A stretch of 64,000 nucleotides of DNA from Oscillospiraceae bacterium (GCA_022800755.1 JAAWQX010000008.1:16675-80674), one strand, 5' to 3'; shown: positions 936-62,963, counted from the stretch's first letter. Notes: generated from the letters alone by a model not told the origin. A program made the numbers and translations.

Positions 936-3265
936 GTTTTTCCTATCCAAACGCCCGGGAAAAGGCGCTGGAAGATGTGTGCCTGTCCTTGGAGAACGGG
1001 GAATTTTGCGTGCTGTGCGGGCCGTCGGGCAGCGGGAAAAGTACATTATTGCGGCAGTTGAAGACGGACCTGACGCCCCGGGGGACCCGGACGGGGGAGG
1101 TCTTGTTTTACGGCGCAGAGCTGTCGGAGATTGACCGCCGGACCCAGTGTGGGCGCATTGGGTTCGTGGGGCAGTCGCCGGAGGATCAGATCGTGACGGA
1201 TAAGGTGTGGCATGAACTGGCCTTTGGGCTGGAGAGCCTTGGGGAAGATACGCTGGCGATCCGCCGGAGGGTGTCGGAAATGGCCAGCTTTTTCGGGATG
1301 CAGACCTGGTTCGACCGGGATACGGCGTCCCTGTCCGGCGGGCAGAAGCAATTGCTGAATCTGGCGTCGGTGATGGTGACACAGCCGTCTTTGCTGGTGC
1401 TGGACGAGCCTACCAGCCAGTTGGACCCCATCGCGGCGGCGGAGTTTCTTTCCATGCTGGGGCGGCTGAACCGGGAATTCGGCACGACGATCTTGCTCAG
1501 TGAGCATCGGCTGGAAGAGGCGTTTCCTCTGGCGGGGAGCGTGGCGGTGCTGGACGCGGGGCGTTTGGTGTTCCGGGGAACGCCCCGGGAAGTGGGGCGC
1601 GCGCTGAAACGGCTGGGGCACCCCATGTTTTTGGCGATGCCTACGGCGATGCGGGTCTGGGCTGCGGTTTCCGGCGGAGAGGACGTGCCGGTGACGGTGG
1701 GCGAGGGCCGGGCGTGGCTGGAGAAGTACGGGGCGGAGCACTCCTTATTGCCTGTACCCGCGGCGGCGGAGCATCCTTGCGGGGATGTGGCCTTGCGGGC
1801 GGAGGAACTGTGGTTCCGGTATGAGAAAAACGCGCCGGATGTGGTGCAAAATCTGTCCGTTACGGTGCGAAAAGGTGAATTTTTGGCCCTGTTGGGCGGG
1901 AATGGTACCGGGAAAACCACCGCTTTGCGGCTGATGGCGGGGCTGCTGCGGCCGTACCGGGGACGGGTGAAGTCCGCGGGACGGGTGGCGCTGCTGCCCC
2001 AGTCGACTCAGGCGCTATTTGTGAAAAAAACCGTGGAAGAGGACCTGAAGGATGTGCGGGGCGGCGGGGCGGATTTCCGGCGCGTGGTTGAGTTGTGCGG
2101 GCTGGGACATCTGCTGGAGTGTCATCCCTACGATTTGTCCGGGGGCGAGCAGCAGCGGGCGGCGCTGGCGAAAGTGCTGCTGACGAAGCCGGATATTTTG
2201 CTGCTGGATGAGCCGACCAAGGGGCTTGACCTGGAATTTAAGCGGATGCTGGGGGAGACTTTGGAGACGCTGTGCCGGCAGGGGAAAACGGTGGTCGTGG
2301 TGAGCCATGACATTGAGTTTTGCGCCGGGTATGCCCACCGCTGCGGCTTGTTTTTTGCCGGGGATATCGTCGCGGCGGACGCGCCCCGGGCCTTTTTCCG
2401 GGGAAACAGCTTTTATACTACCGCCGCCAACCGGATGGGGCGGACGCTGGCGCCGGAGGCGGTCACGGCGAAGGACCTCATTGCCGTGTGCGGCGGGGCG
2501 CCGGAGGCGTATGTGTCCGGGCCGGGGGAGGGGAAAGCGCCCGCGGAGACGGGGGACATGCCGGAGCAAACTCGGGCGAAGCCCGGGTGGCGGGCGGTGC
2601 TGGCGTCGGCTTTGTTGCTGCTGCTGATCCCGGCGACGGTCTGGTGCGGCGCACGCTGGAGCGGCGGGCGGTATACGGCGGTGTCTTTGCTGGTGCTGCT
2701 GGAGGCGATGCTGCCGTTTTTCCTGTGCTTTGAAAGCCGCAGGCCCCAGGCACGGGAACTGGCGGTCATCGCGGGGCTTTGCGCTGTGGCGGTGGCCGGG
2801 CGGGCGGCGCTGTTCATGCTGCCCCAATGCAAGCCGGTGCTGGCCGTGGCGATCATCGCCGGGGCCGCGCTGGGGGGCGAGACAGGCTTTTTGGTGGGCG
2901 CGGTGTCGATGCTGGCGTCCAATATGCTGTTTGCCCAGGGACCCTGGACCCCGTGGCAGATGTTCGCGGCGGGGATCATCGGATTCTTGGGCGGAAAGCT
3001 GTTTTCCGTCAGGCGGGGCCGGGGGGCGATGGCGCTGTTCGGCGCGGCGGCTTCCGTTGTGATCTACGGCGGGCTGCTGAACACCGCGTCTGCGCTGCTT
3101 TGGGCGGATACGCCGACTTGGCCGCTGCTGTTGAGTTATTACGTGGCGGGGCTGCCGATGGACTGCGTGCAGGGGGTGGCGACGGCGCTGTTTTTGTGGT
3201 TTGCGGCGGGACCGATGCTGGAAAAGCTCGATCGGCTCAAGGTGAAATACCGACTAATGGAATAA
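908..3265 (+). CDS. Fused ECF-type ABC ATPase (two nucleotide-binding domains) with a C-terminal S-component-like membrane domain
   Basis: The internal ATG at 908 (METLALCHLSFSY) is in frame within track ORF 746..3265. Two Walker A motifs (GPSGSGKST, GGNGTGKTT) and two signature motifs (LSGGQKQ, LSGGEQQ). The C-terminal ~250 aa are multi-TM with an S-component-like stretch (GETGFLVGAVSMLASNMLFAQGPWTPWQMF). Confidence 0.8.
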   Translation: METLALCHLSFSYPNAREKALEDVCLSLENGEFCVLCGPSGSGKSTLLRQLKTDLTPRGTRTGEVLFYGAELSEIDRRTQCGRIGFVGQSPEDQIVTDKVWHELAFGLESLGEDTLAIRRRVSEMASFFGMQTWFDRDTASLSGGQKQLLNLASVMVTQPSLLVLDEPTSQLDPIAAAEFLSMLGRLNREFGTTILLSEHRLEEAFPLAGSVAVLDAGRLVFRGTPREVGRALKRLGHPMFLAMPTAMRVWAAVSGGEDVPVTVGEGRAWLEKYGAEHSLLPVPAAAEHPCGDVALRAEELWFRYEKNAPDVVQNLSVTVRKGEFLALLGGNGTGKTTALRLMAGLLRPYRGRVKSAGRVALLPQSTQALFVKKTVEEDLKDVRGGGADFRRVVELCGLGHLLECHPYDLSGGEQQRAALAKVLLTKPDILLLDEPTKGLDLEFKRMLGETLETLCRQGKTVVVVSHDIEFCAGYAHRCGLFFAGDIVAADAPRAFFRGNSFYTTAANRMGRTLAPEAVTAKDLIAVCGGAPEAYVSGPGEGKAPAETGDMPEQTRAKPGWRAVLASALLLLLIPATVWCGARWSGGRYTAVSLLVLLEAMLPFFLCFESRRPQARELAVIAGLCAVAVAGRAALFMLPQCKPVLAVAIIAGAALGGETGFLVGAVSMLASNMLFAQGPWTPWQMFAAGIIGFLGGKLFSVRRGRGAMALFGAAASVVIYGGLLNTASALLWADTPTWPLLLSYYVAGLPMDCVQGVATALFLWFAAGPMLEKLDRLKVKYRLME

Positions 3266-3273
3266 ATAGCAAA

Positions 3274-3310
3274 CGCCCCGGAAGATTTTACCTTCCGGGG
3301 CGCTTTTTTA
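3274..3310. terminator. Rho-independent terminator between convergent genes
   Basis: Perfect 11-bp stem cgccccggaag/cttccggggcg followed by cttttttatt. Confidence 0.8.
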
Positions 3311-3315
3311 TTTCG

Positions 3316-3945
3316 TTATTCTGCCGCCTGGGTGCAGAAACGGGCCAGGACACAGGCGACCTGGGCGCGGGTAGCGGGGAGACTGCCGCCCAGGGTGGCG
3401 TCTGTCATGCCGGCGATGAGATGGGCGGCGACGGCCCATTTCATGTTTTCCGCGGCGTAGGCGCTGAGGGCACCGGCGTCGGTATAGGCGCTGAGGTCGG
3501 CCCGGGCGGATACGTCATGGCCTTTGTACGCGGCGTAGCGGTAGAGCATGGCAATGAACTGCTCCCGGGTGATGGGGTCGTCAGGGCCGAAAATATCCGC
3601 GCTGTAACCGCTGATGATCCCGTTGGAAGCGCCCCAGGCGACGGCATTGGCGTAGTACGCGTCCGGCTTTACGTCTTGGAAATCGGAGAGATTCGGCGTG
3701 TCCGCGCCGTCGAGACGGTACAGGACGGCGGCAATCATGCCCCGGGTCGTGTGAGCTTCGGGGCGGAAGCTGCCGTCGTCGAAGCCGGACATCAGGGACT
3801 TGCTGTGTACGAAAGATACCGCGTCGTGGTACCAGGCGCCGGTTTGAATGTCAGGATAGGACATGGGAACGGGCGGGGTGGTTTCGGGGCGCTCGGGCTT
3901 GGGGTCCGGCTTGCTGCTGTCGATGCCCGCGATGGGGATGTACAC
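3316..3945 (-). CDS. Protein with three S-layer homology (SLH) repeats; no signal peptide in the called ORF
   Basis: Three SLH-like repeats (YPDIQTGAWYHDAV..; FQDVKPDAYYANAVAWGASNGIISGY..ITREQF; YTDAGALSAYAAENMKWAV..ATRAQV). GTG start. Pro-rich N-terminus. Confidence 0.7.
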   Translation of the reverse strand: MYIPIAGIDSSKPDPKPERPETTPPVPMSYPDIQTGAWYHDAVSFVHSKSLMSGFDDGSFRPEAHTTRGMIAAVLYRLDGADTPNLSDFQDVKPDAYYANAVAWGASNGIISGYSADIFGPDDPITREQFIAMLYRYAAYKGHDVSARADLSAYTDAGALSAYAAENMKWAVAAHLIAGMTDATLGGSLPATRAQVACVLARFCTQAAE

Positions 3946-3969
3946 CGGCGGGCGCGGGCGGCTCGTGAT

Positions 3970-4551
3970 TTATTTGTAATGTATCATGTCTCCAACTGCT
4001 GCCAGTGGGTCCACATCCCACTGGATCACTTGAATGCCCATTTCGTTAATCGTGGACACGACATGGTCGTCGTATTCGCCGTAGGGACAGCGGAACAGCG
4101 TCGGGCGCTGGCCGGTGATCGTCTCGATCTTGTCACAGCAGGCGTTTACATTGTCCCGAATCTCCTGGGCAGACAGCTTGGAAAAATGGGCGTGGTCGTT
4201 GGAATGGTTCATGACCTCCATGCCCGCGTCGTGGAGCGCCTTGACCGATTCCGGGTACCGATCTACCCAGTCGCCTACCAGAAAGAACGTGGCTTTGACG
4301 TTGTACTGGCCCAAAATGTCGATCAGCATTTGCGTATCCTCGTTGCCCCAGGCCGCGTCGAAGGTCAGGGACACCGCCTTGTTGTCCCGCTCTACGCAGT
4401 AGATGGGCAGTACCCGTTCCGTGGCCGCCGCGCCTACGATCTGGGGCGCGTTCACTGCGTAGAACATCAGGCAGATCACCAGGACCAGCGCCAGGGCTGA
4501 CAGTAGTTTTTTGCGCTTTGCCAGCGCGTTTGTAAGTTGTTTCATGAACAT
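3970..4551 (-). CDS. Polysaccharide deacetylase (NodB/CE4) family, N-terminal membrane anchor, C-terminally truncated
   Basis: NodB motifs LTFDAAWGNEDT, HSNDH, RCPYGEY and WDVD are present. The ORF stops shortly after WDVD, so the DW and LxH motifs are missing. Confidence 0.7.
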   Translation of the reverse strand: MFMKQLTNALAKRKKLLSALALVLVICLMFYAVNAPQIVGAAATERVLPIYCVERDNKAVSLTFDAAWGNEDTQMLIDILGQYNVKATFFLVGDWVDRYPESVKALHDAGMEVMNHSNDHAHFSKLSAQEIRDNVNACCDKIETITGQRPTLFRCPYGEYDDHVVSTINEMGIQVIQWDVDPLAAVGDMIHYK

Positions 4552-4794
4552 CCCTCCTGACAGTTTTGGTACATCATATCGCCTCGTCCGGCAAATTATG
4601 CCCGTCCCGCCGGGAAACCGTCAATAAAATGTTTCTGTTTCTTAATCAAGGCTTAAGCTTTTCGGGGATTGTTTCTTAAACGTGATTTTTCTATACTTTT
4701 TTACAGAGAATAGTTGACAAGGAGATTTGCTTGTGCTATTTTACTATTGTATTAAGTTGATAATGCAATACGAGATGTTTTGAGGTGAAGCAAT

Positions 4795-5964
4795 ATGAAA
4801 GTCTTGCTGACATCTGATTGGAATATGGATGCGGTCAACGGAGTGGTGACATCTGTGATAAACCTGCGACGGGGGCTGGAGGAACGGGGGCATGAGGTCC
4901 GGATCCTGACCTTGTCACCTACCGCGCATTCCTGGGAACGGGACGGCGTGACTTATATTGGGTCGGTGAATGTGGAGCGGATCTATCCCGGCGCGCGGCT
5001 GCGGACCGCCGGGGGGCGCTCGCTGATCCGCGAACTGATCCGGTGGCATCCCGATGTGGTCCATTCCAACTGTGAGTTCAGTACCTTTTTTATGGCCCGG
5101 CATATTTCCGAGCGGCTGCGGGTGCCGTTGGTGCATACCTATCATACGGTGTATGAGGATTATACCCATTACTTCTGCCGCAATGAGGAATTAGGGCAAT
5201 ATCTGGTGGAAAAATTCTCCCGGTGGATTGCCGGACGCACTGACTGCGTGGTCGTGCCGTCTGAGAAAGTGGCGAGGCTGCTGACGGGGTATAACGTGAC
5301 GGCACCGATCTATGTGGTGCCGACGGGGATCGAGCAGGGACGCTTTGCCGCTTCCAACGAGGAAGGGGCCGCCGTGCGGCGGGCACTGGGATTGCCGGAA
5401 GATTGCATGGTGCTGGTATCCGTGGGGCGGCTGGCCAGAGAGAAAAATTACGGGGAATTGCTGCGACTGATGGCCGGGATGCGGACGCTTCCTGTGCGGC
5501 TGCTTTTGGTGGGCGACGGTCCGGCCCGGGAAGAACTGGAGCGGCAAGCCCGGGAACTGGGCGTGGCTGACCGGGTGGTGTTTACTGGGATGGTCCCGCC
5601 GGAAGAAGTCGGGCGGTATTACAAGGCCGGAGACCTGTTCGTCAGCGCGTCCACCAGTGAGACCCAGGGCTTGACCTATTTTGAGGCGTTGTCCGCGGGA
5701 CTGCCTATGCTGTGCCGGGCGGATGCGTGTCTGGACGGCATTGTGATCGACGGGGAAAATGGCTGGCAGTATCAGACAGAGGCGGAAGCCATTGCCCGGG
5801 TGCGGCAGCTGATCGACCATCCGGAACTGCGGGGGCCAATGAGCGCGGCTGCGCTGCGGACGGGGCGGCAGTATTCCGTTCCCGCCTTTGCTGAGAGCAT
5901 TGAACAGGTATATCGAGAACAAATGGCCTGGCGGCGCTCGCCGCTGCGGGAGGTCTCCGCATGA
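4795..5964 (+). CDS. Glycosyltransferase family 4 (glycolipid/diacylglycerol glycosyltransferase-like)
   Basis: GT4/GT-B sequence: N-terminal MKVLLTSD..NGVVTSV and C-terminal ETQGLTYFEALSAGLP (E-x7-E region). Confidence 0.75.
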   Translation: MKVLLTSDWNMDAVNGVVTSVINLRRGLEERGHEVRILTLSPTAHSWERDGVTYIGSVNVERIYPGARLRTAGGRSLIRELIRWHPDVVHSNCEFSTFFMARHISERLRVPLVHTYHTVYEDYTHYFCRNEELGQYLVEKFSRWIAGRTDCVVVPSEKVARLLTGYNVTAPIYVVPTGIEQGRFAASNEEGAAVRRALGLPEDCMVLVSVGRLAREKNYGELLRLMAGMRTLPVRLLLVGDGPAREELERQARELGVADRVVFTGMVPPEEVGRYYKAGDLFVSASTSETQGLTYFEALSAGLPMLCRADACLDGIVIDGENGWQYQTEAEAIARVRQLIDHPELRGPMSAAALRTGRQYSVPAFAESIEQVYREQMAWRRSPLREVSA

Positions 5965-6551
5965 GCCGGGCAGGGGTACAGATCAGCCGGTATCTGCCGA
6001 TGCTGGGGCTGGCCGCCTGCGCGGCGCTGGCGGTCTGGGGCTGGCAGAGCGGGGTGCTTACCTCCCAAGAGGCCATGGAGGCGCTTGTGGCCCGGGTGGG
6101 CTTCTGGGGGCCGGTAATCTTTACCGTCATTCAGGCGGTGCAGGTGGTCATCCCCATTTTGCCCGGCGCCATCGGCTGTGTGGTGGGGGTCATCATGTTC
6201 GGGCCGCTGTGGGGGTTTGTGTACAGTTATGTGGGCATCTGCGTGGGGTCTATGCTGGCGTTCGCCGTGGCGAAGACCTACGGACGGCCCCTGCTGCCCC
6301 GGCTGTTTCAGCAAAAGACCATTGATAAATACGATACTTGGACGAAAAAGGGAAAGTTTGACCTGTGGTTCGCCATCGCTATTTTTCTGCCGGTGGCGCC
6401 GGATGACTTCCTGTGCTATCTGGCAGGGACGACGACTATGAGCTGGCGGCGGTTCACCGCGATCATCTGGGCGGGCAAGCCCTTTGCCATCGCGGCGTAC
6501 AGCCTGATTTTGAACACGGCTTGGACGCAGGTTTTGAATTGGTTAGGATAA
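5961..6551 (+). CDS. TVP38/TMEM64 (DedA-related) family membrane protein
   Basis: Multi-TM 196-aa ORF with LPVAPDDFLCYLAGTT motif. ATGA overlap with the upstream GT4 gene. Confidence 0.75.
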   Translation: MSRAGVQISRYLPMLGLAACAALAVWGWQSGVLTSQEAMEALVARVGFWGPVIFTVIQAVQVVIPILPGAIGCVVGVIMFGPLWGFVYSYVGICVGSMLAFAVAKTYGRPLLPRLFQQKTIDKYDTWTKKGKFDLWFAIAIFLPVAPDDFLCYLAGTTTMSWRRFTAIIWAGKPFAIAAYSLILNTAWTQVLNWLG

Positions 6552-6562
6552 GGGTGATCGAA

Positions 6563-7615
6563 ATGTCAGTTTATCTGTATACCGGAGGGGAACGCATCGT
6601 AGGGAAAAGCGGCGTGGGACAGGCTATCGCCCACCAGCGGGGCGCGCTGCGGGCTGTGGGACTGCCGCCGGACGCGCGTATGGACCGGGGCACCCAGGTG
6701 GTGCATATCAATACGGTGCTGCCGGATTCGCCTGTGATGGCGATGCTGGCCCGGATGCGGCGGAAAAAGGTGGTCTATTACGCCCATTCCACCATGGAGG
6801 ATTTTCGCTGCTCCTTCCGGGGCTCCAATCTGCTTGCGCCGCTGTTTAAGCAGTGGATCCGCTTTTGCTACCGCAGGGGCGATGTGATCTTGACCCCTAC
6901 GGCGTATTCCCAGGAAATTTTGCAGGGGTATGGGCTGAAAAAGCCGATCTACCATATCTCCAACGGTATCGATACGGAATTTTTCCGTCCCAGCCGGGAA
7001 CGGCGTGCGGCGTTTCGGGAGGCTTATGGACTGTCGGACGGGGAACGCGTTGTGATTTCCGTGGGGCATCTGATGGAGCGCAAGGGAATCTTGGATTACA
7101 TCGAACTGGCCCGGCAGATGCCGGAGACACGGTTTTTCTGGTTCGGCTATACCGACCCGAAGCTCATTCCCACCCCGGTGCAGCAGGCCATCGACGGCGC
7201 GCCGGAGAATCTGACCTTTGCCGGGTTCGTGGACCAGGCGGCGCTGCGGGACGCTTACTGCGGCGCGGACGCTTTTGCGTTTTTGAGCCATGAGGAGACG
7301 GAGGGCATCGTGGTGCTGGAAGCGCTGGCCTGCGGGACCCCGACGCTGCTGCGGGATATCCCGGTGTATGACGGCTGGCTGGGGGCCGGGCGGGATGTGT
7401 ATATGTCCGACGGTGTGGAGGGCTTTGAACAGACCCTCGCCGGGATGCTGGACGGTACACTGCCGGACCTGACCGAACAGGGGCGGGCTGTAGCCCGTTC
7501 CCGGAGCCTTGCCGCTGTGGGGGAGCGGCTGCGGGAAATTTATCAGAGCGAAGGGCTGATGGATACCCGTAAATCGAAATTGGCCTGGGCGCGGAAAATC
7601 TATTCCCGGACGTAA
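6563..7615 (+). CDS. Glycosyltransferase family 4
   Basis: Internal ATG at 6563 (MSVYLYTGGERIVGKSGVGQA) is in frame within track ORF 6413..7615. GT4 C-terminal motif HEETEGIVVLEALACGTP. Confidence 0.75.
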   Translation: MSVYLYTGGERIVGKSGVGQAIAHQRGALRAVGLPPDARMDRGTQVVHINTVLPDSPVMAMLARMRRKKVVYYAHSTMEDFRCSFRGSNLLAPLFKQWIRFCYRRGDVILTPTAYSQEILQGYGLKKPIYHISNGIDTEFFRPSRERRAAFREAYGLSDGERVVISVGHLMERKGILDYIELARQMPETRFFWFGYTDPKLIPTPVQQAIDGAPENLTFAGFVDQAALRDAYCGADAFAFLSHEETEGIVVLEALACGTPTLLRDIPVYDGWLGAGRDVYMSDGVEGFEQTLAGMLDGTLPDLTEQGRAVARSRSLAAVGERLREIYQSEGLMDTRKSKLAWARKIYSRT

Positions 7616-56494: not shown

Positions 56495-57274
56495 TTATAC
56501 ATAAATTTCCTTTTTGATCTGCGAAATGGCGTTTTTCTCCAATCGCGACACCTGCGCCTGGGAAATGCCGATCTCCGACGCCACTTCCATCTGCGTTTTG
56601 CCGTCCATATACCGCAGCGCCAGAATTTGCCGTTCCCGGTTGCACAGGTGCTCTACCGCGTCATTCAGCGCGATTTTTTCCAGCCAGTGCTCGTCGGTAT
56701 CCTTGGTGTCCCGGACCTGGTCCATGATACACACGCTGTCTCCGCTGTCGGAATACACTGGCTCATTGAGGGATATGGTGTCGGAAATGGCCTCCATGGC
56801 GAATACCACATCTTCACGGCGTATTTCAAGCATTTCCGCGATTTCCGTTTCGTTTGGCTCTCGGCCGTTTTCCGCAATGAATTTTTCCTTGGCCTGCAAG
56901 ACCCGGTACGCCGTATCCCGCAGGCTGCGGCTGATGCGCACGCTGCTGTTGTCCCGCAGATACCGCCGTACCTCGCCGGCGATCATGGGGACGCCGTAAG
57001 TGGAAAAGCGCACATCATGTGCCTCACTGTCAAAATTGTCGATGGCCTTAATGAGTCCGATACAGCCCACTTGGAACAGATCGTCCATATTCTCGCCCCG
57101 GCCGGTGAATTTTTGGATGACGCTCAGCACCAGCCGCAGATTGCCGGAAATGAGGGTTTCCCTGGCAGAGGTATCTCCGGCACGGCTCCTTTTCAAGAGT
57201 TCCCGGGTCTCCTCATTTTTCAGTACGGGCAGTTTTGCCGTATTCACACCGCAGATCTCAACTTTGCATTGCAT
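56495..57274 (-). CDS. sigG: Sporulation sigma factor SigG
   Basis: MQCKVEICGVNTAKLPVLKNEE...GNLRLVLSVIQKF..DDLFQVGCIGL..RYLRDNSSVRISRS...ISQAQVSRLEK matches B. subtilis SigG along its whole length. The second ATG (57274) has better GGAGG spacing. Confidence 0.85.
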   Translation of the reverse strand: MQCKVEICGVNTAKLPVLKNEETRELLKRSRAGDTSARETLISGNLRLVLSVIQKFTGRGENMDDLFQVGCIGLIKAIDNFDSEAHDVRFSTYGVPMIAGEVRRYLRDNSSVRISRSLRDTAYRVLQAKEKFIAENGREPNETEIAEMLEIRREDVVFAMEAISDTISLNEPVYSDSGDSVCIMDQVRDTKDTDEHWLEKIALNDAVEHLCNRERQILALRYMDGKTQMEVASEIGISQAQVSRLEKNAISQIKKEIYV

Positions 57275-57355: not shown

Positions 57356-57384
57356 TTGACAAGCTTTACAATTACTGGTAGAAT
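57356..57384 (+). promoter_or_regulatory. Sigma-A-type promoter of the rplJ-rplL operon
   Basis: TTGACA, 17 nt spacer, TAGAAT. Confidence 0.6.
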
Positions 57385-57390
57385 ACACGA

Positions 57391-57533
57391 GCGCTCCGGA
57401 GACAGCAGGTGGCAGTTTTTGTCGTAAGTCCTGCCGAGGAAGCAAACGAAAGTTGCTGACCGTCTCCGTACGCTTATGCGTATGGGGATTTTTCTTTATG
57501 GGCGCGATAAAATTCACGGAGGTGAAAACATCT
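57391..57533 (+). promoter_or_regulatory. Probable ribosomal protein L10 leader (autoregulatory 5' UTR)
   Basis: ~140-nt structured leader with long-range ggagac/gtctcc pairing, a ggcag/ctgcc helix, and a tacgc-ttat-gcgta hairpin followed by a U-rich tract. Position matches the L10 leader of Firmicutes. Confidence 0.5.
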
Positions 57534-58187
57534 ATGCCTAACGCAAAAGTTCTCAGCGAGAAGCAGGCCATCGTGGAAGCACTGACCAGCCGTTTGAAGG
57601 AAGCGAGCGCCGGTATCGTCATCGATTACCGCGGCATCACAGTTCTGGAAGACACCGAGCTGCGTTCTGAGATGCGTAAGAACGAAGTGGAGTATTCCGT
57701 TGTGAAAAATACGCTGCTTCGCTTTGCCGCTAACAACGCGGGCCTGTCCGATCTGGACACCGTTTTGAACGGCACCACATCTCTGGCGACTACCACGGCC
57801 GACCCCATTGCACCGTTCCGCATCGTCAAGGAGTATTCTTCCAAGATGACTACGGCGGAGAGCGGCCCCCGTTTCGTGATCAAGGCTGCGTTTATGGACG
57901 GTAAGATGCTGTCCGAGAGTGAGTGCAGCGAGATTGCTGCACTGCCCTCTAAGGACGCACTGTACGCCAAGGTGCTGGGCACCATGCTGGCGCCTATCAC
58001 GAGCCTGGCTGTCGTGCTGAACCAGATCGCCGAAAAGGGCGGCGCGTCCGCTGCAGCACCTGCCGCCGAGGAACCCGCTGCCGAAGCGCCTACCGCTGAA
58101 GCCGCACCCGAGGCCCCCGCAGAAGCAGCTGCTGAGGCTGCACCCGAAGCCGCGCCCGAGGCGCCGGCTGAGCCCGCTGCTGAATAA
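57534..58187 (+). CDS. rplJ: 50S ribosomal protein L10 with a ~45-aa Ala/Pro/Glu-rich C-terminal extension
   Basis: MPNAKVLSEKQAIVEALTSRLKEASAGIVIDYRGITV... is typical L10. RBS ggaggtg. Tail is AAPAAEEPAAEAPTAEAAPEAPAEAAAEAAPEAAPEAPAEPAAE. Confidence 0.9.
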   Translation: MPNAKVLSEKQAIVEALTSRLKEASAGIVIDYRGITVLEDTELRSEMRKNEVEYSVVKNTLLRFAANNAGLSDLDTVLNGTTSLATTTADPIAPFRIVKEYSSKMTTAESGPRFVIKAAFMDGKMLSESECSEIAALPSKDALYAKVLGTMLAPITSLAVVLNQIAEKGGASAAAPAAEEPAAEAPTAEAAPEAPAEAAAEAAPEAAPEAPAEPAAE

Positions 58188-58604: not shown

Positions 58605-58627
58605 TTTCGCTCAAATCGAAGTTCAAG

Positions 58628-58658
58628 CACCCGGTTATCAATAACCGGGTGTTTTTTA
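58628..58658 (+). terminator. Rho-independent terminator
   Basis: cacccggttat/ataaccgggtg stem followed by ttttttatt. Confidence 0.85.
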
Positions 58659-58717
58659 TTTCCATTTCCCGGGAAATGTGATAGAATATGAAAGAATCAC
58701 AAAGAGGATGGTGCAGC

Positions 58718-60211
58718 ATGAACATCAGCGAAGCGAAACAGCAGATCAAAAACGCCGTACGTGCTTATTTGACCCGGGACGAATTCGGCGGCTACCGCAT
58801 CCCCCTGGAAAAACAGCGCCCAATTTTCCTGATGGGTCCTCCGGGCATCGGCAAAACCGCGATCATGGAGCAAATCGCCGGAGAATTGGGTGTCGGCCTG
58901 GTATCCTATTCCATGGCGCACCACACAAGGCAAAGCGCCCTGGGCCTGCCATTCATTGTAACGAAAACCTATGGCGGCGCGGAGTATCAGGTGTCTGAAT
59001 ACACCATGAGCGAGATCATCGCGTCGGTATACGATATGATGGAGGAAACAGGGGTTACCGAGGGCATTTTGTTCTTGGACGAGATCAACTGTGTATCCGA
59101 AACGCTCGCACCTACTATGCTGCAATTTCTGCAATATAAAATTTTTGGCCGCCACCGGGTACCCGAGGGTTGGATCGTCGTGACCGCCGGAAACCCACCG
59201 GCTTACAACAAATCCGTGCGGGAATTTGACATTGTGACCTGGGACCGGCTGAAGCGGATCGACGTGGAACCGGACCTGGAAGCATGGAAAGCCTATGCCT
59301 ATTCTGCCGGCGTCCATGGTGCGGTGATGACCTATCTGTCCATCAAGCAGGACGATTTTTATAAGGTGGAAACCACCATAGAGGGCAAGTGTTTTGTGAC
59401 GGCCCGGGGTTGGGAGGACCTGTCCCGGATGATGCAGGTCTGCGAGGAGCAGGGTATTGGGATCGATGAAAAACTCATTGCCCAGTACATTCAAGACCCG
59501 TCCATTTCCAAGGATTTTGCGGTGTATTACGATTTATATAATAAATACCGGGGCAGCTATCAGGTAGAAGAGATCCTTGCCGGTCGGGCGTCAGAAGCCA
59601 TCCGCCAGCGGGCCAGGGACGCGAGGTTCGATGAACGGCTGTCCCTGATCGGCCTGCTGTTAGACGCTGTCAACAACGAGACCCGGGCGTGTGTCCGCAG
59701 AGAAGCGGTCATGACCCGTCTGCTTGCAGTGCTGAAAGAAGTCAAAGAAGGCACAGCGCCTGTGGTTACGCGGCTGGCCGGAAAATTGGAAGAGGAAAAG
59801 GCGAGGCTTGCCGCTGGAAAGCAAGCCGCGTCTCTGACAGCGGAGGAATTGTATCTGACCCGCAGCTTACTGCGGATTTTGGAAGAGGATATGCTGTTGC
59901 TGTCTGGGGCGAAAAAACCGGATTTTTCTGTGCTGAAAGCGGATTTTGACCGCCGTGTCGCGGAAATGAAATCTGCCGCACAGGAGACCGGTTCCCATCT
60001 GGACAACCTCTTTTCTTTTTGTGACGATGTATTTCCCAACGGGCAGGAACTTCTCATTCTGGTCACGGAATTGACCCTAAGCGACCATAGCGCCCGGTTT
60101 ATTGCCCGGTACGGATGCAAGGCGTATTTTGCGCACAACAAGGAAATGCTGTTTTACGAACGCCAGCAGGAGCTGCTGGACAAACTGGACGAGCTGGAGG
60201 ATACCCTGTGA
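58718..60211 (+). CDS. AAA_5 (MoxR/CbbQ/NorQ-like) ATPase with ~250-aa helical C-terminal extension
   Basis: ATG at 58718. Walker A GPPGIGKT, Walker B ILFLDEIN, sensor VVTAGNPP. Long helical tail. Confidence 0.8.
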   Translation: MNISEAKQQIKNAVRAYLTRDEFGGYRIPLEKQRPIFLMGPPGIGKTAIMEQIAGELGVGLVSYSMAHHTRQSALGLPFIVTKTYGGAEYQVSEYTMSEIIASVYDMMEETGVTEGILFLDEINCVSETLAPTMLQFLQYKIFGRHRVPEGWIVVTAGNPPAYNKSVREFDIVTWDRLKRIDVEPDLEAWKAYAYSAGVHGAVMTYLSIKQDDFYKVETTIEGKCFVTARGWEDLSRMMQVCEEQGIGIDEKLIAQYIQDPSISKDFAVYYDLYNKYRGSYQVEEILAGRASEAIRQRARDARFDERLSLIGLLLDAVNNETRACVRREAVMTRLLAVLKEVKEGTAPVVTRLAGKLEEEKARLAAGKQAASLTAEELYLTRSLLRILEEDMLLLSGAKKPDFSVLKADFDRRVAEMKSAAQETGSHLDNLFSFCDDVFPNGQELLILVTELTLSDHSARFIARYGCKAYFAHNKEMLFYERQQELLDKLDELEDTL

Positions 60212-61023
60212 GCAGCCTGTGGTTGGACGGCGGCGTCCTCCGGGGCTATTACGGCGAGGGCGGAGACGTGGTTCTGCCGGATTTCATCTACGATGTGGGC
60301 GGATATGTGTTCCGCAATCATACCGGGGTGCGGAGCGTTACCGTCCCGGACGGGGCGCTGGACATTGGCTACGGCACATTTTCCGGCTGTACGGGTCTGG
60401 TGAAGGTCACTTTGCCGGACAGCATCCAGCGCATCGATATGTACGCGTTTTCCGGCTGCGAGCGTCTGCCGGAGGTGCGGCTGCCCGCCAGACTGAAAAT
60501 ACTGCGGGACAGCACGTTTATCAACTGCGTATCCCTACGCCGGGTACACATCCCAGAGGGCGTGGAGACCATAGAATTCCACGCCTTTTACGGCTGTGAC
60601 AGCCTTACGGAACTATTAGCCGCCGGCGTAACCATGGTGGAAGACCCCATTATCGATCGCACGGCAAAGTGCGTTTTGCCGAAACTGCCTATTGATGCGT
60701 TGGAATCCCAGGCCATGAAAGACAATGGGACCCTCGGCTATTGCACACGGCCGGAATTGTATTCCGATACCGCGGCAGGTTATGCTACCTATGCCGAAAA
60801 ACATAGCGAAGCGTTAATTGAGGCTTCCATCCGCTGCGACTTTCCGGAGCCTTTGCGGTATTTCAAAAGCGCGGGACTTTTGTCCGCGGAGCGTCTGCCG
60901 AGGTATCTGGAGCTATCCCAACAGTGTAAAAACGCGGAGATCACAGCGTTTTTACTGGAATGTGGTGCCGGAAATGAGGTCGGTCAGTTTTGGGTGGAAT
61001 TTGAGAAGGAATTTGAACTATAA
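60208..61023 (+). CDS. Leucine-rich repeat (BspA/LRR_5-type) protein with helical C-terminal domain
   Basis: The GTG at 60208 overlaps the TGA of the ATPase gene (ctGTGA). Repeats: VTVPDGALDIGYGTFSGCTGLVKVTLPDSIQRIDMYAFSGCERLPEVRLPARLKILRDSTFINCVSLRRVHIPEGVETIEFHAFYGCDSL. Confidence 0.75.
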   Translation: MSSLWLDGGVLRGYYGEGGDVVLPDFIYDVGGYVFRNHTGVRSVTVPDGALDIGYGTFSGCTGLVKVTLPDSIQRIDMYAFSGCERLPEVRLPARLKILRDSTFINCVSLRRVHIPEGVETIEFHAFYGCDSLTELLAAGVTMVEDPIIDRTAKCVLPKLPIDALESQAMKDNGTLGYCTRPELYSDTAAGYATYAEKHSEALIEASIRCDFPEPLRYFKSAGLLSAERLPRYLELSQQCKNAEITAFLLECGAGNEVGQFWVEFEKEFEL

Positions 61024-62432
61024 TGGATGAAAAAGTGATCCAAAAACAACAGGCAGAACACCTGGCGAAAGAGATTTTGACCTTTTCCAGAAATACCCTG
61101 CTGGTGCATCTGCGCTTTCTGGATGCGGCGCTGTGCAAATTTGTGCAGACCCCGGTGCAGATTACGGACACCATCGCCACCGACGGGGAGCACCTGTATT
61201 ACAATACCCGCTGTGTTCTGGAGCGGTACCGACAGGGCAGAGAAATACTGGCGCGGGATTACCTCCATGCGACCCTGCACTGCATTTTCCACCATCCCTT
61301 TGTCCATACCTTAGTAGATATGGAATTGTGGGATTTATGCTGTGATATAGCAGTGGAGAGTATGATTGATGAACTGGGTCTCCCTTGCGTCAACGCACCC
61401 CGAGCGGCGGCGCAGATGGAGATTTTGTCGGATTTGAAGTCAGAATTAAAACTGCTCAACGCTGAACGCATTTACCGCTATTATTTGGACAGCGGTATCA
61501 CGCCCGAGCGGATAAAGGATCTGCGGGAAGCATTTGAAGCGGACGATCACGACATCTGGTATATTCGGGGAAAAAGCGCGCCCGAGGGCGACGGAGAGGC
61601 CACCGGGAGCAAGGAAAAACGCGCACCGGACCAGCCGGGAACGGGGAGCGCCCGTTCCAATGACGACAGCCGGCTGGCAGGTCATATGGATGACCGGGAG
61701 CGTACGGAGCGGGAATGGGAAGAGCTCAGCCGCAGGGCAAAGGTCGATTTGGAAACCGCCAGCCGGGATTGGGGAGACCGCGCCGGGAACCTGACCCAGG
61801 CTCTGCGGGCCATGCACCGCCAACGCTATGATTACAGCGACTTTTTGCGGAAATTTGCCGTTGCCACGGAGACTATGAAAGTCAGCGACGAGGAATTTGA
61901 CTATATTTATTACCATTACGGCATGGAATTGTATGAAAATCTGCCATTGATCGAACCGCTGGAGTATCAGGACGTACCGAAAATCCGGGAATTTGTCATT
62001 GCTATTGATACATCAGGCTCGGTTTCCGGGGAGTTGGTGCAGCGGTTTGTGGAAAAGACGTACAATATCCTGAAATCCACGGAAAATTTTGCGGGTGAAA
62101 TGAACCTGCATATCATCCAGTGCGACGCGGAGATACAATCGGACAAAAAAATCACAAAACAAGAGGAATTTGATGCGTATCTGCGTACTATGACGCTCAG
62201 CGGCTTCGGCGGCACGGATTTTCACCCGGTATTCCGCTATGTAGATGAGTTGATCCGGGAAAAGGAATTTACCGACCTGCGTGGGCTGATTTATTTCACC
62301 GACGGAAAAGGCGCGTTTCCGACGTCGCCTCCCGGTTATCAGACCGCGTTCATTTTTCTGGACGATGGCTTTAACGACCCGCAAGTCCCGGTGTGGGCGA
62401 TGAAGCTGATCTTGCGGGAAGAGGAATTATAA
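61023..62432 (+). CDS. DUF2201-like protein: degenerate zincin-like N-domain plus VWA domain
   Basis: TAATG overlap with the LRR gene. ATDGEHLYYN and YLHATLHCIFHH sit where the family has HExxH. MIDAS-like DTSGS. C-terminal VWA-like fold (IYFTDGKG). Confidence 0.75.
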   Translation: MDEKVIQKQQAEHLAKEILTFSRNTLLVHLRFLDAALCKFVQTPVQITDTIATDGEHLYYNTRCVLERYRQGREILARDYLHATLHCIFHHPFVHTLVDMELWDLCCDIAVESMIDELGLPCVNAPRAAAQMEILSDLKSELKLLNAERIYRYYLDSGITPERIKDLREAFEADDHDIWYIRGKSAPEGDGEATGSKEKRAPDQPGTGSARSNDDSRLAGHMDDRERTEREWEELSRRAKVDLETASRDWGDRAGNLTQALRAMHRQRYDYSDFLRKFAVATETMKVSDEEFDYIYYHYGMELYENLPLIEPLEYQDVPKIREFVIAIDTSGSVSGELVQRFVEKTYNILKSTENFAGEMNLHIIQCDAEIQSDKKITKQEEFDAYLRTMTLSGFGGTDFHPVFRYVDELIREKEFTDLRGLIYFTDGKGAFPTSPPGYQTAFIFLDDGFNDPQVPVWAMKLILREEEL

Positions 62433-62434
62433 AA

Positions 62435-62468
62435 AATAGGGGTAAGACATTTGTCTTACCCCTATTTC
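62435..62468. terminator. Bidirectional rho-independent terminator
   Basis: aataggggtaagac-attt-gtcttacccctatt flanked by an A run and a T-rich tract. Confidence 0.8.
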
Positions 62469-62479
62469 TATGGGAAGAT

Positions 62480-62677
62480 TTACTTCATGCCGTTTTCGTA
62501 GGCCTGAATCATCTTTTTGACCATCTGACCACCAACGGAGCCGGCCTGGCGGCTGGTGAGATCGCCGTTGTAACCCTGCTTCAGGTTCACGCCGACCTCA
62601 GCAGCGGCCTCCATCTTGAACTTGTCCATAGCGTCACGGGCGTTGGGGTTCATGATGTTGTTAGAAGAGCTCGTCAT
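62480..62677 (-). CDS. Alpha/beta-type small acid-soluble spore protein
   Basis: MTSSSNNIMNPNARDAMDKFKMEAAAEVGVNLKQGYNGDLTSRQAGSVGGQMVKKMI, the canonical SASP signature. Confidence 0.9.
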   Translation of the reverse strand: MTSSSNNIMNPNARDAMDKFKMEAAAEVGVNLKQGYNGDLTSRQAGSVGGQMVKKMIQAYENGMK

Positions 62678-62963
62678 AATTCGTTTCACTCCTTATCGTG
62701 ATGTTAATCATCTGCTCGATGATTTCGCTATTATCTTTACCCAAGAGAAAAAGCTTATTCAATTTTTTAGTGGCAATATCTGTCAGGACTGATACGTTGG
62801 AAACGAAAAGTGAATGTGGCATAAAACCGGAGCGGCAGGCCAGCATTTTTTGTAAGAAATGACGTTGCGCACGGCATTGCAAAGAAAATGATAAAGGAGT
62901 ATACTTTAAAGTGTTAAATCAAACCGATTTGACTGGGAATTGATATGAAAGAAGGAATGAAAC

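Follow-up and report, generated by a model that had tools for sequence, protein, structure and literature searches.

MoxR-type AAA+ ATPases that are encoded together with a von Willebrand factor A (VWA) domain protein rank with the bacterial chaperone systems that are most widely distributed and least well understood, and clients are known for only a few of them. Here, we describe a three-gene locus (the triad) encoding an AAA+ ATPase, a leucine-rich repeat (LRR) protein and a VWA protein of the DUF2201 type, which occupies positions 58718-62432 of a 64,000-nucleotide stretch of DNA (the window) from the metagenome-assembled genome of an uncultured Oscillospiraceae bacterium (GCA_022800755.1, JAAWQX010000008.1:16675-80674), where the three proteins carry generic names only. 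The triad is a genuine three-gene operon that forms one self-contained, recurrent unit, and it is probably a variant of the MoxR-type AAA+/VWA systems acting as a remodelling chaperone. The logic expected of such chaperones combines an ATPase ring, a VWA adaptor and an acidic residue of the client (PMC9976466, PMC13036017). [quoted passage not shown] The MoxR-vWA ternary conflict systems (Kaur, Burroughs, Iyer and Aravind, 2020; PMC7159879) have a third component, which is either VMAP or a beta-propeller protein with effector domains; no LRR component figures in that paper, in which peptidase domains that are inactive and fused to the vWA protein are also described. Literature searches on DUF2201, COG3864, DUF4132 and the combination of MoxR with LRR returned no functional study, and no description of the triad was found.

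Like NorQ-NorD, CbbQ-CbbO, CoxD-CoxE and RavA-ViaA, the triad associates an AAA_5-type ATPase with a MIDAS-bearing VWA partner. It departs from these characterised chaperones in that its VWA protein is of the DUF2201 and not of the VWA_CoxE or NorD type and carries a zincin-like N-terminal domain, in that the ATPase has an additional tail of 200 aa and the operon a third, LRR subunit, and in that no client gene is linked to it in the window. No sequence match to any of these four pairs extends beyond the P-loop region. With the ternary systems, the triad shares a three-component composition, i.e., an AAA+ MoxR-like ATPase, a vWA protein and a variable third protein, and a preliminary description made from the sequence alone had assigned it to them. 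We have not retained this assignment: the bpMoxR profile scores below its cut-off on the ATPase, the third protein consists of LRR_5 repeats and a helical domain, and no effector is present. Enrichment of the ternary systems concerns multicellular actinobacteria and cyanobacteria, and not gut Clostridia.

Two-gene DUF2201 pairs, which we call canonical, are found mostly on phages and plasmids and are likewise uncharacterised, e.g., SGL_RS00750/00745 of Synechocystis pSYSA and gp34/gp30 of the Thermus phage phiFa. Both of their proteins are homologous to those of the triad and are encoded as a pair in the same way, with an intact MIDAS and all three histidines. The canonical pairs differ by an HExxHxxxxH motif that includes the glutamate, by an ATPase of ~340 aa without tail and by the lack of an LRR gene. 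The nearest thematic parallel is the uncharacterised Escherichia coli cluster yehI-yehK-yehL-yehM-yehP-yehQ (locus L094), in which an AAA_5 MoxR ATPase (yehL) and a VWA protein (yehP) are encoded beside a large DUF4132 protein (yehI). This cluster differs from the triad in that YehP is of the VWA_CoxE and not of the DUF2201 type, in the additional presence of DUF5682 (yehM) and SWIM (yehQ) proteins and in the absence of LRR_5 and zincin-like domains, whereas the LRR protein of the window has no DUF4132 domain.

The three open reading frames (ORFs) of the triad (Table 1) are all located on the + strand, and independent gene calls on public contigs gave the same three products. The genes are packed as the preliminary description had proposed: the GTG start codon of the LRR gene overlaps the stop codon of the ATPase gene (GTGA, 60208-60211), the ATG start codon of the VWA gene overlaps the stop codon of the LRR gene (TAATG, 61021-61025), and a purine-rich ribosome-binding site precedes each of the three starts. 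The strong terminators reported on both sides were also recovered, with a folding energy of -22.2 kcal/mol (z -7.8) for the upstream hairpin and of -23.4 kcal/mol (z -5.5) on the + strand and -25.1 kcal/mol (z -7.7) on the - strand for the downstream one, which was not caught by a consensus terminator scan because its T-run is interrupted on the + strand. Pfam searches confirmed that the operon lies between rplJ/rplL and a small acid-soluble spore protein (SASP) gene. This operon structure, as read in the sequence, demonstrates that the three genes are co-transcribed and translationally coupled. The G+C content of the triad (53.7%) is close to that of the window (55.4%), and a recent horizontal acquisition was accordingly rejected for the window.

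When one genome per GTDB species was searched, relatives were found to be encoded in at least 591 stretches, the best 80 of which (42-56% identity) belong almost all to Clostridia or other Bacillota. The clade abounds in Clostridia of the gut and rumen, and the 90%-identity clusters matched by the ATPase number more than 8000; cultured carriers are, e.g., Pseudoflavonifractor capillosus An827 and Ruminococcus sp. YRD2003. Among 82 related loci that we compared, 64 have both the VWA and the ATPase gene, on one strand. One or more LRR genes are located between these two genes in 34 of the 64 loci, in the order VWA-LRR-ATPase in 32 cases and in the order of the window, ATPase-LRR-VWA, in two. The pair is adjacent with an LRR gene at most 1 kb away on the same strand in 10 loci, adjacent without any LRR gene nearby in 17, and separated by an insert without LRR match in the last three. 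LRR matches make up 57% of the gap between the two genes, compared with 2-9% of the flanks, and an all-against-all clustering of the ORFs recovered the VWA family in 76 loci, the LRR family in 59 and the ATPase family in 56, the next family being present in only seven. No other LRR_5 gene is present in the 64-kb window. In these operons, the LRR gene is not incidental: it recurs regularly, though in variable form, as the third component, in agreement with the role of variable component first suggested for it; it is not missing from most operons, and few inserts of another kind fill its slot. Across Clostridial families, the ATPase is ~60% and the VWA protein ~47% identical, and in the closely related locus L005 the three genes have diverged equally from those of the window (71/71/71% identity). 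Precomputed Pfam tables give no domain for several operon-linked LRR proteins that score LRR_5 E-values of 1e-119 to 1e-177 when searched directly (L007:9503-11659, L092:8168-9982 and L099:9518-11455); therefore, our context tables under-report LRR partners. The operon-linked LRR protein of L007 also contains a BRCT domain and a Zn-ribbon.

In the VWA protein, both domains of the DUF2201-type layout were detected above cut-off, DUF2201_N (PF13203) with 48.6 bits (cut-off 23.2, E 1.1e-12) and DUF2201 (PF09967) with 52.8 bits (cut-off 26.4, E 5.4e-14), as well as a low-complexity linker at residues ~185-230. Neither sequence nor profile searches detected a relative of this protein in the PDB. 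Among 30 homologues with at least 50% identity, H82, H86 and H91 are invariant, and position 83 is occupied by A, V, I, M or L, never by E. Distant relatives from pSYSA (HELLHxxxxH), a Simplicispira plasmid (HEVLHxxxxH) and the Thermus phage phiFa (HELLHxxxxH) align over the full length of the protein; therefore, the HATLH of the window sits in the HExxH position, and the replacement noticed in the preliminary description holds under alignment. It extends to the whole clade, since 78 of 79 independent Clostridial loci have a residue other than Glu after the first His, with HxxxHxxxxH preserved in all 79. From these alignments, the VWA protein of the triad appears as a divergent DUF2201 member that fails the HExxH feature of its family, and its zincin-like domain, which has lost the Glu and kept the three His, is likely non-catalytic. 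The MIDAS, described as intact, is indeed complete: D329, S331, S333, T398 and D427 are invariant in the 30 homologues and in the distant relatives, and DxSxS is present in 71 of the 79 Clostridial clade members. E112 is also invariant in the Clostridial clade, and Asn is found at this position in the three canonical proteins aligned; this Glu might serve as a catalytic or ligand residue that has changed place.

The ATPase has all AAA+ catalytic motifs, among them GPPGIGKT, ILFLDEIN and VVTAGN, and the Walker A and B motifs, sensor 1, the Arg finger region (R168/R177/R180) and VTARGW are invariant in 25 homologues. Pfam profiles AAA (35.5 bits) and AAA_5 (33.9 bits, cut-off 22) both score above cut-off. 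By sequence, midasin was matched best in the PDB, and this match is confined to the P-loop region. The core (residues 35-290) is homologous to a 341-aa protein of pSYSA, named 'MoxR family ATPase' in RefSeq, which is the partner of the HExxH protein encoded there (hhalign probability 99.1%). The predicted model of the ATPase has a predicted local distance difference test score (pLDDT) of 78, with values below 50 in a beta-hairpin (81-92) and in an insert (125-133). The unusual helical tail announced in the preliminary description is real, with a length of ~200 aa rather than ~250, because the AAA+ module with its lid extends to about residue 300. The tail is modelled with high pLDDT as five helices (304-343, 349-370, 375-397, 403-438 and 443-496). 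A search with residues 251-497 matched 1119 representatives at 50% clustering; among the matches listed, each full-length one (~500 aa) aligns at its own C-terminus, and many others, being shorter, seem to be truncated. Every Clostridial locus with a whole ATPase gene, loci without LRR gene included, encodes the tail, which was not found in the plasmid and phage partner ATPases compared. In 80 viral loci from IMG/VR, the HE dipeptide is present in 63, 58 of which have a short partner ATPase close by, and neither the ATPase tail nor an LRR gene was found in any of these. Sequence comparison singles out two apparently derived traits, the ATPase tail and the loss of the Glu, that mark the whole Clostridial clade. 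Since the tail is absent and HExxH intact in the canonical pairs, the Clostridial clade is a derived version of the two-gene module that is frequent in phages and plasmids; LRR partners are confined to this clade, where about two thirds of the loci have them.

The LRR protein matches LRR_5 with an E-value of 1.3e-24, and its AlphaFold model (pLDDT 91.7) has five to six LRR strands with a 23-residue spacing, close to the five BspA-type repeats and the helical C-domain counted in the preliminary description. TpLRR and BspA-like LRR structures are the top PDB matches in Foldseek, the LRR part alone being matched. Repeat type and fold are thus those of known BspA-type LRR_5 proteins (TpLRR, 6mlx; 'cell surface' structures from Bacteroides and Faecalibacterium). 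According to their descriptions, these known proteins are secreted or located at the surface, whereas the operon-linked proteins have a distinct helical C-domain and no signal peptide: a hydrophobic, signal-peptide-like N-terminus was found in 0 of 100 operon-linked LRR ORFs, as already noticed for the window protein. Intracellular BspA-type LRR proteins, a repeat type regarded until now as that of surface adhesins, would gain a defined molecular partner with the triad.

The C-domain of the LRR protein is predicted to form seven helices from residue ~168, the last one with low confidence. It aligns with the post-repeat region of operon-linked LRR proteins from many loci, with the common pattern A.xG[FY]..Y..Y[IA]....L..A[ID]....L......[LI]......E.A....n.E..A.LL[ED]Y[KR]. 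No Pfam family could be assigned to it by scanning 23 C-domains with E-values up to 5; one of the 23 weakly matched Ank_2 (E 0.049), and the comparison with the ANK consensus was not significant (hhalign probability 10%, over a single repeat). An acidic tail, [FY]-[DE]-x-[FY]-[DEA]-[LI]-COOH, is conserved in a subset of the LRR proteins that includes the lineage of the window. The C-domain profile also matched residues ~161-270 of a 799-aa protein encoded directly after the ATPase in locus L092 (11532-13931; hhalign probability 97%), in which LRR_5 (31-156) and the C-domain are followed by DUF4132 (508-666); the protein L097:14519-16966, also located after the ATPase gene, has the same arrangement. 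An identity of the C-domain with DUF4132 was ruled out, since the C-domain maps upstream of DUF4132 in these fusion proteins. The triad ties intracellular LRR_5 proteins to DUF4132 and to the E. coli yeh cluster, and it brings together three derived traits, a tailed motor, a Glu-less zincin VWA subunit and a cytoplasmic LRR protein with a new helical domain. Besides LRR proteins, ~310-aa proteins with neither LRR nor Pfam domain were observed in the slot between VWA and ATPase genes (L095:9418-10344, L036:8399-9373 and L061:2725-3669). One of these loci was seen on more than 200 contig blocks, the middle proteins of L095 and L036 are 45% identical, and the resemblance of the C-termini of the middle proteins to the C-domain is weak and inconsistent (52%, 1.5% and 4% for L095, L036 and L061, respectively).

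Table 1. Positions of the features of the triad and of its boundaries in the window.
Feature	Position	Strand	Basis
Predicted intrinsic terminator of rplJL, upstream operon boundary	58625-58654	+	13-bp stem then T-run
Predicted sigma-70-like promoter, TTTCCA, 17-nt spacer, TG-extended TAGAAT	58659-58687	+	9/12 matches, TG present
Putative ribosome-binding site AAGAGGA ahead of the ATPase gene	58702-58708	+	read from sequence
AAA+ ATPase, 497 aa; AAA_5-type core and lid, residues 1 to ~300	58718-60211	+	Pfam, motifs, model
ATPase Walker A, GPPGIGKT, residues 40-47	58835-58858	+	motif position
ATPase Walker B, ILFLDEIN, residues 117-124	59066-59089	+	motif position
ATPase sensor 1, VVTAGN, residues 154-159	59177-59194	+	motif position
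ATPase sensor 2 region, VTARGW, residues 227-232	59396-59413	+	motif position
Clade-specific helical C-terminal tail of the ATPase, residues ~301-497	59618-60208	+	model, homologue search
Cytoplasmic LRR protein, 271 aa, GTG start; BspA-type LRR_5, residues 1 to ~160 (60208-60687)	60208-61023	+	Pfam, model
LRR protein, helical C-domain of ~100 aa, residues ~161-271	60688-61020	+	model, alignment
C-domain motif NAEITAFLLEC	60931-60963	+	alignment
Acidic C-terminal tail EFEKEFEL of the LRR protein	60997-61020	+	sequence
VWA protein, 469 aa; DUF2201_N 38-282, DUF2201 VWA domain 325-460	61023-62432	+	Pfam, 30-homologue alignment
HATLHCIFHH, residues 82-91, Glu-less form of the HExxHxxxxH metal site	61266-61295	+	alignment
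DIAVE, VWA protein residues 108-112, clade-specific E112	61344-61358	+	alignment
MIDAS DTSGS, residues 329-333	62007-62021	+	alignment
MIDAS T398 in GGTDF	62208-62222	+	alignment
MIDAS D427 in FTDG	62295-62306	+	alignment
Predicted bidirectional terminator hairpin, downstream operon boundary, common to the triad and the convergent SASP gene	62434-62467	both strands	15-17-bp hairpin

By analogy with the characterised chaperones, the triad may function as an ATP-driven protein-remodelling machine of the MoxR-type AAA+/VWA kind with a cellular client, a proposal to which we give an even chance. As in NorQ-NorD, CbbQ-CbbO and CoxD-CoxE, the tailed ATPase would form a hexameric ring, on which the VWA domain of the DUF2201 protein would dock and pass force on, and the MIDAS metal would be completed by an acidic residue from the bound protein. 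The LRR protein would be the specificity subunit, with a solenoid that selects the client and with its C-domain and conserved acidic C-terminal tail anchored at the ATPase tail and/or the MIDAS site; the Glu-less zincin domain would serve for binding, or for holding a metal, and not for cleavage. The LRR protein could be the recognition component, and it could equally be an adaptor or the client. In our judgement, the client is a protein complex of the cell and not an invader; the only candidate suggested by the data is a molybdenum hydroxylase. Several signs of a housekeeping type favour such a remodelling machine, i.e., the high conservation across families, the even divergence of the three genes, the large number of stretches encoding relatives, the matching G+C content and the mostly ordinary neighbours. 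A subclade linked to molybdenum hydroxylase genes and one locus located amid molybdenum cofactor (Moco) genes, both presented below, also count in its favour. The roles of cytoplasmic LRR_5 proteins and of DUF2201 become testable with a three-gene construct.

Several observations weigh against this remodelling machine. The ATPase is only weakly AAA_5-like: bpMoxR scores 25.9 bits, just under its cut-off of 27, the AAA_3 profile gave no match in the Pfam scan, and a Foldseek search of the model against the PDB retrieved generic AAA+ proteins with a template modelling (TM) score of ~0.2, NorQ ranking among RFC, FtsH and dynein. Because these matches are generic and their TM scores low, the ATPase could not be placed in the MoxR clade nor its tail identified; the MoxR/CbbQ-like character attributed to it in the preliminary description stands at the level of AAA_5 and no finer, the fold search being not discriminating. 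Furthermore, no client gene is linked to the triad in the window or in most loci, 17 of the VWA-ATPase pairs have no LRR gene nearby, some loci are located beside WYL, HEPN, BRCT, Cas1 or mobile-element genes, and phages and plasmids commonly encode relatives of the ATPase-VWA pair, as would hardly be expected of a metalloenzyme chaperone.

These last observations could instead point to an anti-invader or conflict system, in which the LRR protein would act as the sensor for a protein of a phage or mobile element, and binding would be turned into a response by the AAA+/VWA pair, as has been proposed for the ternary systems. We consider such a role unlikely, and the evidence for it is weak. It would account for the lack of a conserved genomic context and for the variability of the LRR proteins, which number one to several per locus, range from 177 to 1812 aa and are ~27% identical where the ATPases are ~60% identical. 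Some loci adjoin WYL, HEPN_Swt1, UvrD/PDDEXK, BRCT, SbcCD or Cas1 genes, or else methyltransferase, primase/helicase or recombinase genes, and canonical relatives are found on pSYSA amid toxin-antitoxin genes, and in phages. However, only a handful of the 149 flanking ORFs are defence-like: the commonest Pfam domains are LRR_5 (8), ABC_tran (5) and Ank_2 (3), HEPN_Swt1, SbcCD, Cas1, methyltransferase and reverse transcriptase genes occur in one or two cases each, and a defence-island test on these ORFs gave no clear enrichment. The triad is outside all PADLOC systems, since the LRR and VWA proteins have no match in PADLOC-DB 2.0 and the ATPase has only weak, IetA-like matches in the P-loop region (E ~1e-5); the PADLOC matches among the flanking ORFs are probably for the most part generic ABC-ATPase cross-matches. 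Moreover, the three proteins contain no nuclease, TIR, pore or other effector domain, their sole enzyme-like domain being Glu-less, the rate at which the LRR protein evolves in the lineage of the window is no higher than that of the two other proteins, and the published ternary systems offer no precedent for an LRR third component. One could also imagine a surveillance system resembling nucleotide-binding leucine-rich repeat (NLR) receptors and split over several polypeptides, in which the AAA+ ring would be the NTPase, the MIDAS protein the adaptor and the cytoplasmic BspA-type LRR protein of gut Clostridia the receptor, and where binding of a ligand by this receptor would license ATP-driven remodelling, by way of the pseudo-protease/VWA subunit, as an immune or stress output. 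This idea is improbable in our opinion; if true, it would provide a function for the very large family of intracellular LRR_5 proteins, for DUF2201 and for DUF4132.

A more specific possibility is that the triad is a maturation factor for a molybdoenzyme of the xanthine dehydrogenase/carbon monoxide dehydrogenase (XDH/CODH) family, analogous to CoxD/CoxE, with the LRR protein holding the apo-enzyme. In the cox cluster, coxMSL are followed by coxD (MoxR) and coxE (VWA). Similarly, the triad follows the gene of a molybdenum subunit on the same strand in seven loci (L027, L038, L042, L058, L065, L068 and L079), the distance being 130-220 bp in L027, L058 and L079. Five of these loci (L027, L042, L058, L065 and L079) extend far enough upstream to show genes for the FAD and 2Fe-2S subunits ahead of it, which corresponds to the coxMSL order; in L058, for instance, the molybdenum-hydroxylase genes (3051-6868) are located upstream of the VWA gene, which starts at 7001. 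The molybdenum subunit has 812 aa (Ald_Xan_dh_C and MoCoBD), the FAD subunit 293 aa (FAD_binding_5/CO_deh_flav_C) and the 2Fe-2S subunit 160 aa (Fer2_2). The linkage has been kept even though the VWA proteins of these loci are 53-72% identical, the molybdenum subunits being 85-91% identical. In addition, the triad of L099 (1-17509) is embedded among XdhC, MoaA, MOSC, ModABC and MocA genes, weaker XDH-like neighbours are present in L071 and L078, and the LRR C-domains closest to that of the window come from the molybdenum-hydroxylase-linked loci. This subclade hints at a metalloenzyme as the client of some part of the family, at the least. As an explanation of the whole family, and of the triad of the window in particular, a dedicated molybdoenzyme factor nevertheless appears quite improbable: the link concerns ~10 of 85 loci, the seven strongest of which form one clade, most loci have unrelated neighbours, and the 64-kb window contains neither an XDH nor a Moco gene. 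Clostridia have many XDH-family genes, so that some chance adjacency is expected.

The distribution of the canonical pairs raises the question of whether the triad could be the remnant of a prophage or another mobile element, or a cargo serving that element. Matches were obtained to phrog_1297 with the ATPase (E 1e-37) and to phrog_1314 with the VWA protein (E 2e-40), and some loci adjoin mobile-element genes. Yet, the triad of the window, with its window-like G+C content, is inserted between rplJL and a SASP gene with no phage or integrase gene nearby, the closest matches in isolate phages and plasmids are only 22-33% identical, and the Clostridial type occurs on only four of 2.9 million IMG/VR contigs; such an origin is very improbable. 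Finally, an incidental insertion of the LRR gene into an ordinary ATPase-VWA pair, to which the 17 pairs without adjacent LRR gene and the abundance of LRR_5 genes in Clostridia could point, is hardly tenable and largely refuted by our census, in which 44 of the 64 loci have a same-strand LRR gene inside or directly beside the pair and LRR matches are concentrated in the gap, as well as by the start/stop codon overlaps of the window, by the specific C-domain that marks operon-linked LRR proteins and by the lack of any other LRR_5 gene in the window.

The region comprising rplJL and the triad is bracketed by two genes on the - strand, the SASP gene (62480-62689) and a sigma-70-family gene (56495-57274) that we take to be of the sporulation SigF/SigG type. 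In L005, the sigma-factor gene is still present upstream, extra genes are located between rplL and the triad, and no SASP gene follows. A sporulation link was dropped because these flanking SASP and sigma-factor genes are not conserved even at 71% identity. Upstream of rplJ (57534-58187, +), a ribosomal protein L10 leader (RF00557) was detected at 57378-57503 on the + strand, with 52.3 bits for a gathering score of 44, and a strong promoter-like site (57356-57384) is located just ahead of it. The L10 protein of the window has a total length of 217 aa, compared with 183 aa for its orthologue in L005, and ends with a Pro/Glu/Ala-rich C-terminal extension of ~45 residues, AAAPAAEEPAAEAPTAEAAPEAPAEAAAEAAPEAAPEAPAEPAAE.

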